DNA from: Ginglymostoma cirratum
Lineage: Eukaryota
Length of the DNA: 64,000 nt
Direction: 5' to 3'
NCBI GenBank assembly: GCA_024137785.1
Contig: JAHRHZ010000092.1
Coordinates: 4,639,200-4,703,199 of the forward strand
The position numbers were made by a program, and so were the translations under genes. Positions 28,303-49,258 of this stretch are shown in pieces; within the stretch, counting starts at the first letter, position 1; every line of letters begins with the position of its first letter. The notes under the pieces were generated by a model. It had not been told where the DNA came from and searched no databases. It worked only from the letters and a program-made list of their open reading frames with translations.

Positions 28303-28416
<114 letters not shown>

Positions 28417-28627
28417 CTAACCAACATAAGAAATTCCAATATTCAGTGAAATGACAAATTATATAAAATACATATCCACTAGCTGAATGTGGTAGCCTTT
28501 TAATGCAGTTTCTACCACATTAGATGTAGAACCAGTGGGACTTAGTGGGCTACATTTGAAACCTACACATAATATTTCAATTAATTGATATTTAAGTTCT
28601 GTCTGAATATTCTTACTTTATAGACAG

Positions 28628-28709
28628 GATTCTAGCGAGATTAAATTGCTGAAGGAGCTCCTGGACTTAGAGAAAGAATTGGTGATGATAAGACTTTCAT
28701 CACTGGAAG
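28628..28709 (+). pseudogene. Inverted, diverged duplicate of a downstream RyR exon (~human RYR1 exon 88)
   Basis: ttactttatagacag|GATTCTAGC...CTGGAAG|gtaaat; 82 nt; [27 protein letters not shown](G) versus RyR [27 protein letters not shown](G). Confidence 0.85.
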
Positions 28710-30149
28710 GTAAATGCAATGGTGTAACGTACTGGAGAAGGTAACTTGTATTATATGAAGAAATACAACAAGCTAAATTTTTATTCAATTCAGTTCAACA
28801 AGCCCTTACTTCTACTACCTTCATGAATTAGCCACTCCCTTCATAAGATCTTATAAGTAAGCGAAGAACTGCCAGATAGAGTCAAAGATGTCTATAGCAT
28901 GGAAACAGGCCCTTCAGCCCAATTTGTCCATGCTACTCAGCTTTCACAAGTAAATTAGACAAGTTGTACCACTTGACCACCAAAACTAAAAAGAGAATCG
29001 GGAACATTGTCCTTTAGTTGTATAGGGCTTTATGTAAGACTGCACCTGGAATACTCTATGATTCTGATCTCCATAATTAAGGAAGCTTACATATCCATTG
29101 GAAACAGTGCAGTCAAGGTTCAGCAGATTGCTCCTAGGATGTGAGGGTTGTCCTTTGATGACAGGCTGAGTTAATTGGGTCTGTGTTCTCTGGAGTTATA
29201 AAGAATGAGATGTGATAGAATCAGAGGTCAATAGCACAGGAAAAGGCCTGTCAGCCCATCAGGTCTGCACCAATCAAAACAAGCGCTTAACTATTTTAAT
29301 TCCACTTTCCAGCACTTGGTCTAGAGCCTTATGTGCTCTTGGCATCATAAGCCGACTCCTAAATACTTAAATGATGAGGGTTTCTGTGGCAGTGCAGAAG
29401 TATACCATAAATAGACTTGAGTTGTGCTATGATGATGGCGCAGCGAGGCTTGCATGTCAGAAGCCACTATCCATGGATGAGGTGTGTGCGGCTGTTGTCC
29501 TGGACTGCGCTCTGGGAGATTGGTGCTGGGCATTCAAGATGGAACAAGCAGTGAGCTGGAGTCACCAGGTAACACTCTAACCTTTATGTTGATAATTCTC
29601 AGCATCTAGTTTCTATCCAGTGTCTGATGAGACTAGTTAGTAATAAGAATGATAATGAGCAACAATCTCCATTAATACAGCTCTAATCTCTCACTGGTGA
29701 CAAGCTTGCCTTAGAAAATCTGGTAAATACGACTCGTTCCTCATGAAGTTGAGAAATACCTCGCTCAATTTCTCAAAAGAAATTCCCAAATTTCTCACCA
29801 TAATCCACATTGTTTAGGTCATGTGAAGATTCTGCCTCATGCATTTGGATCAGTTCAGTGTAAAATGCAAAGGCACTGGCGGTTATCTTTCAATCATCCT
29901 GAGGATCCATAGATTCCTCTTCAAATCTAGCGACTATCAGGTTCTTTTGGGCTTGTCTGCCTTGTCGCAGAACTGTTTTGGTTTCTTCAGTATCATTATC
30001 AGAGGACTGGAGAATTGCAAGCATGGTGCCCCTTCCAAAAAAAATACTAAAAGGATAAGCCCAAGCCAGGAACTACAGTTTAACTTAAGTGGCAAGGAAA
30101 CTTCTGTAAATAGTTATGTGGGATAGAAATATGGGTCATATGGAAAAAA

Positions 30150-31310
30150 AACTGATTAATTAGGAACAGCCAGCATGAATTTCTTAAGGGAAAATCACAT
30201 TAACTAACTTGGGAATTTTTTGAAGAGGTAACAGAACGTTGCTGAGGGTAATGCTATCGGTGTGGAGTACACAGACCTTGAAAAAGTATTTCCTACAGTA
30301 CCTACACAACAGACTTGTGGGAAAAGTTACTGCTCATGAAATAAATGGGACAGTAACAACATGGATATAGAAACATTTCCTGATATATATACACATGATC
30401 TAGATCTTTATATGGAAAGTTTTCAGATGAAACAACATTAGCAAATAATGTGAACTGAGAGGACAGTGTAGAACTGCTAAAAGACTGTGTGAAAAGTTGG
30501 AATGGCTGATAGGTGACATATGAAGTTCAATGTGCAGAAATGAGAAGTGATATTTTCAACAGAAAGAACATGGAGAGGCAGTATAAAATAAATGCTGTTA
30601 GCCTAAAAGGTTTATAAGAGCATAGAGATCTGGATGCCTGTGTGCATAGATGCCAGGACAAATAGAACAAACAGTTAAAAATGCACATTGTTTCCTAGGT
30701 TTCATTAACAAGGACATTGTGTACACAGGCAAGGAGGTTATGCTGAATTCGTAGAAGATACTAGTCAGACCTCAGCTGGAGTATTGTATTATTCTGGATA
30801 GTAAACTTTGGAAACAATGTGAACACCATTAGAGAGATTGCAGAAAAAGGTGTATGAGAACAGTTTCAGGGATAAGAAACATCAGTTATGAGGCAGGATT
30901 GGAGAAGGTGGGACCGTTTCCCTCAGAGGTGAAGGCTAAGAACAGATTTGAGGAAAGTTTTCAAAATCAGGAGATGTCTATACAGAGTACACAGGGAAGT
31001 CTGCTTGTAAAAGGATCTAGAATGAGAGGGCACAGATATAAGGTAATTTGAAAAGAAGCAATGTGACACGAAAACAACTCATTGTGTGAAAGAAGTATAA
31101 TGGCTGGGACACATCTGGAATTGTGGCAGAGGCAGGTTCAACTCAGACATTGAAGAGGGCAGAAGATGACTATTTAAACAAAAATAATATTCAGGGTTAT
31201 GGGGCAAAAGTAGGACAATGGCACTGAGTCATAGTTCTTGTTCAGAGAGCTGATGCGGACAAAATGGGCCAAATAGCCTCCTTCCTTACTATAACAATTC
31301 TGTGATTGTG
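30150..31310 (+). mobile_element. Degraded CR1 LINE 3' portion
   Basis: RTVSGIRNISYEAGLEKVG...GSRMRGHRYKV and a typical CR1 3' UTR ending attctgtgatt. Confidence 0.85.
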
Positions 31311-32837
31311 TGGACAATCAGAAATCAGATAATGATCACTTCCTTTGTACCTCTAAAATGTTAAGATACTTTTTTGACAATAATTTGTAAGTTAATTTGT
31401 TCGTTTAGTTTTAATAACCTTTTGTCCTCCTTATAATGCTGATCTAAGGCTTCTGACCCCCTTCAAAGAAAAGGCTACTGAACTGGCAGAAGAACAAGAC
31501 ACGCCAGCTGTATGGGGCAGGCGTCATTGAGTATCTACAGTCTTCTAATATATGGTCTCCTAGTTCTGAAGAAAGGTCAGTGAGCTGATGGTTCACGGCC
31601 TAGTAAGAGTTGTAGCTCCTTTTACTTTATAAGTGTGAATGCTGGCAGATGTGCGAGAGGCAGTACCAATGTTTTACAAGTACTGTAATGTAGTGATACA
31701 TTGTTTGCACATGGCACTCAACTCACACTCATAGGAGCGTGCATCATTGAGTAGGCAGTGGTGTGGACCCTGGCAGATTGCAGTAGATTGTTCGTCTTCT
31801 TACAGCATTGGAGCCAGTTCCTTTTGGGCCACTCATGGGCACTGACCTCACAGTCACCTCCATCCAGTTTGCTTTCATTCATTGGGGTGGCCTCCTTTGC
31901 CAATCCTTGAGAAGAGAACTTCCCTTCTTTCCTGGGCAGCTTTCAAAAAATCTCTACAGAGACATCAGTGAAATGAGGCACCAATTTCTGCATGGTCTCT
32001 GACGTCATCAGGGATGGATAGGGGTGATGAGCAAAGGTTGAGTGATGCTCTTGGGTTGCAGAGTGTGAAGTGCTTTCAAAAATGGCATCTGGATGCTGGA
32101 GCCTGGAAGGTCCCCATGAGGGTAGGACTTTCATCCATTACATTTGGTGTTCTACTTGTGTATGCATACATAGTGAACTGAGAAGAATGTAATCCATGCA
32201 AGAAAACTTGACTCTGAGCAGAAGAACCTCTACCATTAGGAGGACCTCAGACTAAGTCTCAAAAAATCAAGATGCTGTCCAAAGGTACTGATGTTTACTC
32301 AAGTCCATCAAGAGAACAGGCTGGCAGAGGGGCTTGGACATTGGGAAGATCAGAGATTGCGGGTCTCATCTGAGGCTAGATCAGTACTGCCCTAAAACAA
32401 CTAGACCCTGGTTGGGAACTCAGGAGAATATAATCCGTACGTGTGTTATATCATTTTATGGAAGTGCTACAATATGATGAGTTTAATAATACATGTAAAA
32501 TTACACAAATTAGGATTCTTGCTGTTCTTTCATAGTATGTTATCTCAGATGTGATATTTCTGTTTTTACTTGACTCTTTCATTAAATTGCAGTCATTCAA
32601 AGAAAACTTAGGGGAATACAGTGGGCTAGTGGCAATGTTACTGGAGGCTATCCCACCACAGCAATTAAAAATCAAATGAATACAGAATATAAAGGTAGTT
32701 TCAGTAATGGTGACCATATTAATTATAATTTATTAATGTGAAAACTGCTCTGGTTCACTAATACTCTAAGGAGCCTTGTGGTACAGTGGTAATGTCCCCC
32801 TGGGATAGAAACTCCAGGACTTGATGGCCAAGGTAGG

Positions 32838-33070
32838 TGTAGTGACTGCAACAAGGTCAGCCAGCTGGACCACACAGAATACAAGTTCCCTGATTGGGCT
32901 GTTAATCTAGTTCAATCAGGGAGCCCTGGCTGACAGATAAAAAGGGGAGTTTTAGAGATACTGCCACGCTGAGAGCTAACGCTGGATGAGATAGTACTAA
33001 AGTCAAGGACTATTCATGAGTAAATAAAGGGTGACTTGTTGATGGGATACCTGCCTCTGGAGTGTCAATT
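32838..33070 (+). mobile_element. Probable solo LTR nested in an older SINE
   Basis: Starts TGTAGTG; internal fold-back gtcagccag..ttccctgattg/caatcagggag..ctggctgac; TATA-like gataaaaa and AATAAA at ~33023. Confidence 0.55.
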
Positions 33071-33080
33071 TGTAAATCTC

Positions 33081-33087
<7 letters not shown>

Positions 33088-33110
<23 letters not shown>
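33088..33110 (+). repeat. (CA)n microsatellite
   Basis: About 11 AC units. Confidence 0.95.
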
Positions 33111-33111
<1 letters not shown>

Positions 33112-33255
33112 CCCTACCTGCCCTCCCCCATCCCCACTGAAATGGCCTCGTAAGTTCCTCATTTCAAGGGCAATTAGAGATGAGCAACAAATTTCTGGCC
33201 TTACCTTGAAAGAAATAGAATGCATATTTGTACATAAAGTAACAGTTGTCTGTAC

Positions 33256-45860: not shown

Positions 45861-47717
45861 GAGGTATAGAACTCCAGTTGGTTAGTATTAAACTGACAAT
45901 GTGAGGCTCCTAGCCTCATTACAACATTTAAGTGAACTCCCCCACACCCTGGCATGGATTGACTGCCACCCTTTGATCCAAAACCCGTTAAACCCAAAAA
46001 TGGTTGGGTCAGGGTCAGGTTCGGGACTTGTATAATATTGTATATCTCACCCTACCCTAATCTACCTGCTTTTGGATGTTAAATTACTTTCAAAATGCTC
46101 ACGAGTGAGATCAGGAACAGAAGGCGGCCATTCAGGTCTTTGTGTCTGTTCCATCACTAGTCAATGAGGTTGTGACTGATCCATCTCTTAACTCGATCAG
46201 CCTGCTTTAGTCCCATAACCCCAATCTCCTCACCAGCAACTCAGACGGAGTAGGCAGCTGAGGCGAAAAGAACAATTATCAATTTTCAGAATTTCGTGGT
46301 GTCAAGTCAAGTCTACTCCTGAAAACAGGGCAATTTCCACTCCTTGGTGCCGTGAGTTGAAACAATGTATCTTTCCCACTTCCATTCTTCATACTACATA
46401 TATAAAGAACCTTGGGTTGTAAAGAACACTCTGATGCTATGTTCATACCTGTATAACGCAGTCTAAACTTAATGCAATATGCCTACTTTCCAGAAGACAA
46501 ATCCTTGTGCAACATATGGGGCAAAATCTGCTTACAAGAATCACTGTGAATGGAGTGACACACAATGGTCTGTATCAATCTGAAATGTCAACAAGCAGTT
46601 AAAGTCTCACATAATTTTTGGAGCAGGTTTTGAAAATGTCCTGAAAACATGATCAATGTGTTCAACATGCAAAGACAGCAACCATAGGCCTATTGGTTTT
46701 TAGGTGAAATGCAATGAATAGCTATACAATATGTTATTGATCATTAAAACCCACTTCGGGGGTGAAATTCTTTGTCAGTGGTGCTGTATGAATAACCGTA
46801 AATTAGCTGTCCCCCTGATAATCCAAGTTTATTTTCTTTACTGTTAAAGTTACCCTTATTTCATCAACATATTTGGTGTAACGTCAGGAAAACAAATGGC
46901 ATAAATATCTAAATATGAGGAGATGTTCATGCATTTTATAGTAATATAGAAGTTTATAAATTGATGCTTAACATCATATAAATAGCCTCTGATTCGTTGG
47001 TCTACATGCAGAAAAAAACTTACTATAGTGAGAGTTGGTTGTTAAAAAGCTTGATCATTGTTGGAACAGGTTTACAAAGAATTGGGCCACGCTTTTTTTA
47101 AAAAAAAAACATTTCTGCACCTCAATGTTCTTCTGCACATAGAAAGAGCTGCTGTTGAACTAACGTAGTTACTTGGAATTGCTTTGATGAGAGACCACCA
47201 CCTGAGCCACTCATCATCCTGACTTGGAAATATATTACCGATAATTCAGTGTTGCTGGATCAAATTCCTGGATCATCCTGCATGACTGCTGGTGTTCCTA
47301 TACCAAATTCAAGGTGGCAGCTCTACACGACCTTTCTAAATGCAATGATGGATAAACAGTAAATGTTGACCGAGCCAGCGAAACCCATATCTCACGGATG
47401 AGTAAAACAAAGAAATGGGAGTAGAAATATGAAGCTCAATGAAAAGTGCTGAATGCTGGTAGATCACAGAGTAATTTATGCCCATTCTGTAAGGACATCA
47501 TAATATGAGAGTTATACCTGCCTTTTTTTGACATTGACCAAATAGTGGCCTACATGACATAAACTGGGTGTTTAAGCAATTATTCTGGGTTAAAATATTA
47601 CTTGGCTTATTCAATAATGTGATTATGGGATTGGTCCTTGGGTTTGTAAAATAGTTCCCTGTCAGGAGCTTATACCTGAAATGATCCCGGAGTTTTATAA
47701 TGTCATTCTTTTTTGTT

Positions 47718-48065
47718 ATTTATTCAGGATGTGGGCATCGCTAGCTAGACCAGCATTTATTGCCCATCCCTATTTGCCCAGAGGACAGTTAAGAGTCAGC
47801 CACATTGCTGTGGGTCTGGAGTCATCTGTAGGCCAGACCAGGTAAGGATGGCAGTTTCCTTCCCTGAAGGACATTAGTGAACCAGATGGGTTTTTCTGAC
47901 AATCAACCATATATTCATGGTCATCATTAGACATTTAATTCCTGATTTTTATTGAATTTAAATTCCACTAACTGCCACACAGGACTCAATCTCAGCTCCC
48001 CAGAACATTACCTGGGTCTCTAGATTAATAGTTCAGTGATAAAACCATTAGGTCATCACCTTCCT
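47718..48065 (-). mobile_element. tRNA-derived SINE
   Basis: Reverse complement of the 26330 family, full length. Confidence 0.85.
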
Positions 48066-48077
48066 TTGGAGATTCTG

Positions 48078-48325
48078 GATTCAATTAAAAATGTGGAATT
48101 AAGGGTCTAATGATTACCATGAAACCAATGTCAATCATTGGAAAAAACCCATCTAGTTCACTAATGGCCATTAGGGCAGGATTGTGCTGTCCTTACCTGG
48201 TCTGGCCTACATGTGACTCTAGATCCACAGCAATGTGGCTGACTCTTAACTGTCCCTTGGGCAATTAGGGATGGGCAATTATTGTTGGCCTAGCCAGTGA
48301 CGCGCACGTCCCATGAATAAAACAA
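48078..48325 (+). mobile_element. 5'-truncated SINE of the same family, adjacent and opposite in orientation
   Basis: ggaattaagggtctaatga...ccttacctggtctggcctacatgtgactc...cccatgaataaa. Confidence 0.85.
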
Positions 48326-49258
48326 AATCAGCTATCCTTGTGTTACTCAGTCCAAATAAATTTCAAGTTTGCTTGTAAACATGTTAACAAACACTGCAAA
48401 TATATTGAACAGTTTACGTTGTTTAATTATCTATAAATTCAAAAGTTCTGTTGAAAGATAATGAAGTTGAAACATTAACTCCGTTTTTTCATAGATACTG
48501 CCTGGCTTCTGAGTATTTCCAGCATTTTTATTTTAAACTAAAAGTGAAACTTTTGGTTCTTGAGAGCACCCCTTCACTCCCTGGTTCTTTGATTACTGAA
48601 TGAGAGACTTTATATTTTGTTACTTGTATATTTACAAATAATTATTTTTGTTATTAATTTCTAACTCAGACATTATAAGGTGAACACATTTTAAAACAAA
48701 AACTGACATAAAACAATTCTAATTTTGCTAACGATTGAAAGCAACATGCTAGGGCTGACAACCAAAGCATTTATCAACACTTGCAGTGGCTTTCGCAGAT
48801 CATTACAGGTTTAATATCCCCTCCAATCGAGTAAATATATTGATGCTGAGGCCTGTTCAAGACTTAATAGAGCTGTTTTTAAATTTGCTTGCCAGTGGCT
48901 GATGGCTGTCTTAATTTAACAGCTAAGCCTAACATTGTATAGCAAGTCACACTTAGTCTATTCTGTCACCAGTCTGAAATTTGCTTAATTAGACAGTGGC
49001 TTCTGAACAACAATTTTTGGCTTCCCAGAGCAAATTTTACCAACAAATGCCAGCAGCCTTTGATCTGTCTAAATGTTACAAATATAATGATATATTATTT
49101 AAATCAATAAAACACTTTCCAATTCCATGAGCCTGGTGATAGAAACTAAAACAGCATGGCTAATCAGAGGGCCTTAGCAGGAAATCTGGGGGAATGCCAT
49201 CAGCAGTGCGAAGCTAGCTGCACAGCGGATGCATATTTATATCATCATGCCCTCTGAC

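Follow-up and report, generated by a model that had tools for sequence, protein, structure and literature searches.

An intron of the ryanodine receptor gene RYR1 of Ginglymostoma cirratum contains an old, inverted duplicate of an unspliced exon-and-intron stretch located further downstream in the same gene. With a probability of about 0.86, we regard this duplicate as the product of what was likely a single template-switching or break-repair accident, and as likely functionless since then; it is likely an ordinary relic and not a splicing switch. The window, i.e., the whole stretch of 64,000 nt analyzed here, lies on a contig abbreviated as C92, whose own coordinates are used for positions outside the window. 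An earlier sequence-only reading had noted an exon-like block on the strand opposite to the host gene and proposed that it is a decaying, inverted copy of a downstream exon. It had further suggested that the copy pairs with the real exon and loops out exons 74 to 87, favoring circular RNA formation, exon skipping or ADAR editing, or that the block is an exon of an antisense transcript. The exon numbers 73, 74, 87, and 88 are presumed human-equivalent labels, with the source of the copy taken to be "exon 88".

The host was identified as a minus-strand ryanodine receptor gene by tblastn with RyR proteins. RYR1-labelled proteins mostly matched it best (eight named database proteins, up to five exons), and an RYR1-like protein agreed with the host in 35/37 and 52/58 residues, compared to 31/38 and 39/61 for RYR2. 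The real exon next to the copy, which served as an internal control, presumably encodes the calmodulin-binding segment. The features of the region are as follows:

28304-28416, minus strand: real host exon of 113 nt, found by tblastn with RyR proteins, boundaries checked
28417-33255, minus strand: host intron of about 4.8 kb holding the copy, which lies 174 nt from the intron's acceptor
28590-29385, plus strand: whole inverted duplicate of the 678-bp unspliced source C92:4606056-4606733 (minus strand)
28590-28627, plus strand: copied terminal part of the intron preceding the source exon, including pyrimidine tract and AG (6 mismatches in 38 aligned nt)
28628-28709, plus strand: 82-nt antisense copy of the RYR1 exon, source exon C92:4606612-4606693
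28710-28846, plus strand: copied non-repetitive start of the downstream intron, GT donor kept (20 mismatches in 130 aligned nt, 4 indels)
28855-28947, no strand assigned: 93-bp high-copy repeat insertion, later than the duplication, with a 6-nt target-site duplication and many genome-wide copies
28981-29215, plus strand: copied LINE-like fragment, recognized by translation and present in the source intron beforehand (36 mismatches in 221 nt)
29216-29385, minus strand: copied 3' end of a second LINE-like element in opposite orientation, within which the copy stops

The exon-like block itself was found as originally described: it occupies 28628-28709 on the plus strand, is preceded by a pyrimidine tract and AG, is followed by GT, and its frame is open as read. 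Its distance to the host exon's acceptor (minus strand, 28416), estimated earlier as about 210 bp, is 212 nt. Comparison with the true exon of the same genome revealed 69 of 82 identical nucleotides (13 differences) and 18 of 27 identical residues, which reproduces the residue count given before, and eight of the nine amino-acid changes need one base, in line with what had been said of most of them. The acceptor of the copy carries a second AG 4 nt upstream of the first (28622-28623), which the source does not have. The copy peptide matches RyR chains in the PDB (E about 0.003-0.006), and a peptide search of the genome led to four places among four candidates, namely the copy, its source partner, and the two paralogous exons. 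Chance likeness to a RyR exon is ruled out by the DNA match within the genome, described below.

Of the 40 matches scored in the DNA search of the genome, one was a non-repeat partner, C92:4606463-4606733 on the minus strand (78% identity, E 4.6e-53). This RYR1 stretch comprises the true exon and flanking intron, on the opposite strand of the same contig, as the proposed inverted duplication predicts. Two collinear, inverted blastn blocks were obtained, 28590-28852 (78%, 278 columns) and 28981-29385 (76%, 414 columns), and the duplicate, whose left edge may extend to about 28578, is thus far larger than the exon noted first. In its 678-bp source, the exon is flanked by about 40 nt of upstream and about 555 nt of downstream intron. 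The inner ends of copy and source are 61,056 nt apart, with the copy located in an intron upstream of the source. The first LINE-like fragment carries what we take to be a CR1-like motif, and the second LINE-like element continues for about 750 bp at the source; a related repeat elsewhere in the window gave a weak RVT_1 match (E 0.002, below the curated cut-off). An exon-like stretch to the right of the copy (29392 onward) was rejected as another old repeat. The 93-bp insertion is absent from the related organisms D and E, in which 28854 is joined directly to 28948 (X11 and X14). This repeat entered the copy in the lineage of the window's species only, and it is usable as a presence/absence marker.

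Several origins of the duplicate could be rejected. Derivation from RYR2 or RYR3 does not agree with the numbers of identical nucleotides, i.e., 69/82 for the exon of the same gene but 58 and 56 for the paralogous exons, and long intron flanks are common to the copy and the same-gene source only. A processed (spliced) retrocopy was rejected on account of the introns present in the copy. An assembly artefact was likewise dismissed, as the host exon and the copy are contained together in individual contigs of organisms D and E, and the divergence from the source amounts to 18-24%. The template must have been unspliced because the copy retains the intron flanks and two repeat fragments in collinear order. 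The duplication appears to have arisen at the DNA level, likely by one template-switching or templated break-repair accident involving two sites on one chromosome, although the junctions are too old to reveal the mechanism; their eroded edges showed no clear microhomology, target-site duplication, or tail. As the piece was inserted backwards, its AG and GT would lie on the strand that is not read in the RYR1 pre-mRNA, and the insertion would have come at no cost and been left to drift. The class of inverted templated insertions is already known. MMBIR-type templated insertions, as described by Osia et al. 2021 (PMC8421209), resemble the RYR1 copy in being short, inverted, and templated from the same chromosome, and the RYR1 copy would correspond to a germline-fixed insert of this kind without gene disruption. 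The signature reported there for yeast MMBIR, however, includes a template within about 100 bp and junction microhomology, whereas the template of the RYR1 copy is 61 kb away and its junctions are too old to score. It is unlikely, though conceivable, that the piece instead moved through RNA, either by LINE 3' transduction or as unspliced antisense RNA copied by a LINE enzyme; this would concern the origin only and still imply no function. On the minus strand, the layout indeed corresponds to the 3' end of a 5'-cut LINE followed by its 3' flank, and the source LINE-like element is 73-83% identical to its family and 79% identical to the copy. The same layout could nevertheless be a coincidence in a repeat-rich intron, and the source element today measures only about 750 bp in a 2.4-kb intron and is not full-length. 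Moreover, a clear poly(A) was not detected at the copy, nor was a target-site duplication beyond a chance 5-mer, features that 18% divergence could have erased, and a landing site 61 kb away on the same chromosome would fit a local DNA event better.

The exon copy and its source differ with pN 0.152 and pS 0.192, whereas the source exon and its two paralogues show pN 0.06-0.07 and pS 0.69-0.82. The exon part is also as diverged as the intronic part (13/82 vs. 97/554 aligned sites), and the intronic parts contain 16 indels. In neutral simulations, AG, GT, and a frame free of stops and indels were all kept in 7-14% of runs; the intact look of the exon copy in the window's species is mild luck. 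The copy is also present in both related organisms, D and E. In organism D, a 1-bp deletion at 28681 was found in both of two samples (X11 and X12), with a stop two codons later, while the frame is open in organism E. The real host exon (28304-28416) has no listed change in either organism. In organism E, the copy has 5 listed changes over 82 nt and the real exon 0 over 113 nt (Fisher p 0.012), with 5 of the 22 differences of E having no listed place and probably lying near the ends of the compared stretch. Pooled over D and E, the copy changes at a rate similar to that of its flanks (5/82 vs. 13/356, p 0.35). In summary, the exon copy looks like a neutrally decaying pseudo-exon, and the earlier proposal of an inverted duplication followed by neutral decay is largely borne out by the copied flanks, by pN being near pS, and by the frameshift in organism D. 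By divergence ratio, and with small counts, the duplication is about 6 times as old as the split from E and about 18 times as old as the split from D. The mutation rate reported for the epaulette shark is 7e-10 per generation (PMC10587355). An absolute date based on this rate, about 140 million generations, is not credible, and only relative ages are used here.

RNA-like contigs also had to be considered as possible evidence for transcription of the copy. Those of X9, X10, and X1 cover only about 28624-28689 of its non-repeat part, and X13 contributed none; such gaps in coverage carry no information on expression. No X10 contig covers the host exon. The X10 contig over the copy has loose ends matching the source exon and the end of the real exon preceding it, and it differs from the copy at four positions, the number expected from cross-mapping. 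This contig is the normal spliced mRNA of the window's species or a very close one, and it shows that the source exon is included in the main mRNA form. In this contig the source exon is spliced to its upstream neighbor with visible letters unchanged compared to the genome, bearing in mind that contigs drop rare variants and that this one is silent on rare circles, skips, or edits. An apparent joint between opposite strands in X1 (organism A, 28303 to 28624) was rejected as a junction involving the copy and is read as one linear mRNA containing both real exons. For read mapping, the exon copy is a trap: reads of the real exon also map here, on the opposite strand, and can mimic antisense transcription or a strand-switch junction.

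In terms of predicted energy, the two arms could pair. For the first 263-nt block, a duplex of -301 kcal/mol with 226 pairs was predicted (mean of 20 shuffles -71), and for the whole copy a duplex of -759 kcal/mol; identity is hence high enough for a stable predicted duplex. The two blocks sum to about 490 bits; of the 111 single inverted matches over the 195 kb examined, 3 score higher. On the other hand, RYR1 contains 15 inverted matches whose scores equal or exceed that of the exon-bearing block and whose arms are nearer to each other, six of them within 10 kb. Since selection for pairing should favor transitions that leave a G.U pair, we compared these to transitions leaving an A.C mismatch and obtained 37:29 (p 0.39; 53% in 36 control repeat pairs). 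Pair-breaking transversions account for 44 of the 110 differences and are not in shortage in the exon part (6/13 vs. 38/97 elsewhere, p 0.76). Pair-preserving evolution or conservation of the arms was not seen in these ratios, in the flank-equal rate, or in the tolerated indels, with evolution in the relatives being assessed on the copy arm and the source arm taken from the window's species. Within the exon copy, we noticed post hoc that all eight copy-side transitions (five in the window's species and three in the relatives) are G.U-compatible, i.e., G>A or T>C (p about 0.01). Two further changes were attributed to the source and excluded, since both paralogues have the same letter as the copy. 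The G.U-only pattern is absent over the whole duplicate, and it is a lead only, because the sub-region was picked after seeing the data and transversions are not depleted.

Reverse complementary matches are known to promote back-splicing and exon skipping, as reported for C. elegans zip-2 (PMC8330042), and an AluY/AluSx1 pair with 228/297 identical positions causes exon skipping in TBXT (PMC10901737). The RYR1 copy is like both systems in that opposite arms occur in one pre-mRNA with one arm near a splice site, and its first block (217/278) is comparable to the TBXT pair in length and identity. However, the arms in zip-2 and TBXT are both intronic and their action was shown by deletion (PMC8330042, PMC10901737), while one RYR1 arm consists of the exon and its splice sites, the arms are separated by 61 kb, and a back-spliced or skipped product is hypothetical. 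Pairing over tens of kilobases can affect splicing, as documented by the functional 30-kb pre-mRNA pairing of ATE1 R2-R5 (Kalinina et al., PMC7797038); yet the ATE1 elements are conserved over this distance, whereas the RYR1 copy changes at the flank rate in three species. Distance also matters in TBXT: of two pairs, with spacings of 1.4 and 4.2 kb, the closer one prevails (PMC10901737). In a search that left most subscription journals outside, we found no paper describing the RYR1 copy locus. Intronic elements of the GRIA2 type act as editing-complementary sequences for ADAR, and an exon with an antisense copy in an intron could, in principle, likewise become an ADAR substrate. The RYR1 copy differs from such ADAR pairs: it is located 61 kb upstream of the exon, and its intron is likely removed first. 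The editability of Alu elements declines with distance, with a decay scale of about 800 bp, and editing of inverted repeats is weaker across exon/intron segments (PMC4066801), compared to a partner that is 61 kb off in RYR1.

Against this background, we weighed the functional explanations. That the copy acts as a long-range reverse-complementary arm, masking the source exon and looping out exons to yield circular RNA, non-productive splicing, or ADAR editing, appears very improbable to us. Several observations argue for such a role and accordingly count against a mere relic, including the stable predicted duplex and its score rank, the position 174 nt from the acceptor, the persistence in three species, and the eight G.U-compatible transitions, picked post hoc; the source exon measures 82 nt, and skipping it would cause a frameshift. 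Precedents exist in the three systems mentioned above (PMC8330042, PMC10901737, PMC7797038). Nonetheless, the gap of 61 kb exceeds the TBXT spans (1,448 and 4,188 bp; PMC10901737) 15- to 40-fold and is double that of ATE1, and 9.6 kb separate the downstream arm from the donor needed for circle closure. The arms show neither an overall G.U excess nor a transversion shortage in the exon part, they have tolerated 16 indel events and the 93-bp insertion, and 15 equal or better inverted matches lie at closer range within RYR1. The X10 contig shows the source exon spliced in normally, as far as contigs, which drop rare variants, can tell. Furthermore, the 4.8-kb host intron would need to stay unspliced over 61 kb more of transcription. 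The copy would more probably be removed with this intron, usually long before its partner is transcribed, and the duplex predicted on paper would therefore rarely form. The pairing function put forward initially (loop-out, circular RNA, skipping, editing) thus finds no support, given the 61-kb gap, the missing G.U excess, and the tolerated indels and repeat insertion. A more elaborate version is about as improbable: an accidental backwards copy of a constitutive exon would have been kept as an antisense arm that pairs across 61 kb with the exon and both its splice sites, diverting a fraction of transcripts into frameshifted or circular forms and thereby tuning the dose of the muscle calcium-release channel. 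The G.U-only transitions inside the exon copy would then be its footprint.

Least probable of all is that the block represents a spliced exon of a plus-strand antisense transcript, either coding or non-coding. The frame and both splice dinucleotides are intact in the window's species, which also stands against decay as a relic, and the frame is open in organism E; such intactness, however, arises by chance at the simulated frequency given above. The copy has changed 9 of 27 residues in an otherwise near-invariant segment, its acceptor carries the extra upstream AG, and the frameshift and stop in both samples of organism D argue against the coding version of the antisense transcript proposed earlier. 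Nor did copies of further RYR1 exons able to form a partner exon appear when 59 exon blocks were screened against 464 kb, about 30 kb of which are N, with the 5' end of the gene incompletely mapped. These 59 blocks were each matched by at least two proteins, and 15 single-match blocks of 74 were left out. A plus-strand tblastn screen missed the known copy; it was too insensitive and was excluded from the count.

As a relic, the duplicate matters little beyond being a clean, dated-by-ratio, exon-bearing inverted insertion tolerated by a very large gene, and it is a possible shared marker for the clade that carries it. Should the pairing act after all, it would span twice the 30 kb of ATE1 (PMC7797038) and offer a natural test of the reach of co-transcriptional pairing.

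Some further observations were made along the host gene. Between the host acceptor and the copy, a perfect inverted repeat of 10 bp (28489-28521) was spotted by eye; it is probably due to chance. The exon after the source exon is one unbroken coding block of ~1.3 kb with 440 open codons (C92 about 4602900-4604240), where human RYR1 presumably has three exons. In another RYR1 intron, opposite copies of one repeat at 47711-48327 (122 nt apart, 81% over 251 nt) likely form a local hairpin. Finally, an inverted repeat pair of ~700 bp, 84% identical and 805 nt apart, is located in an RYR1 intron left of the window (C92 about 4617500-4619700). As a putative ADAR substrate, this pair is far more promising than the exon copy.
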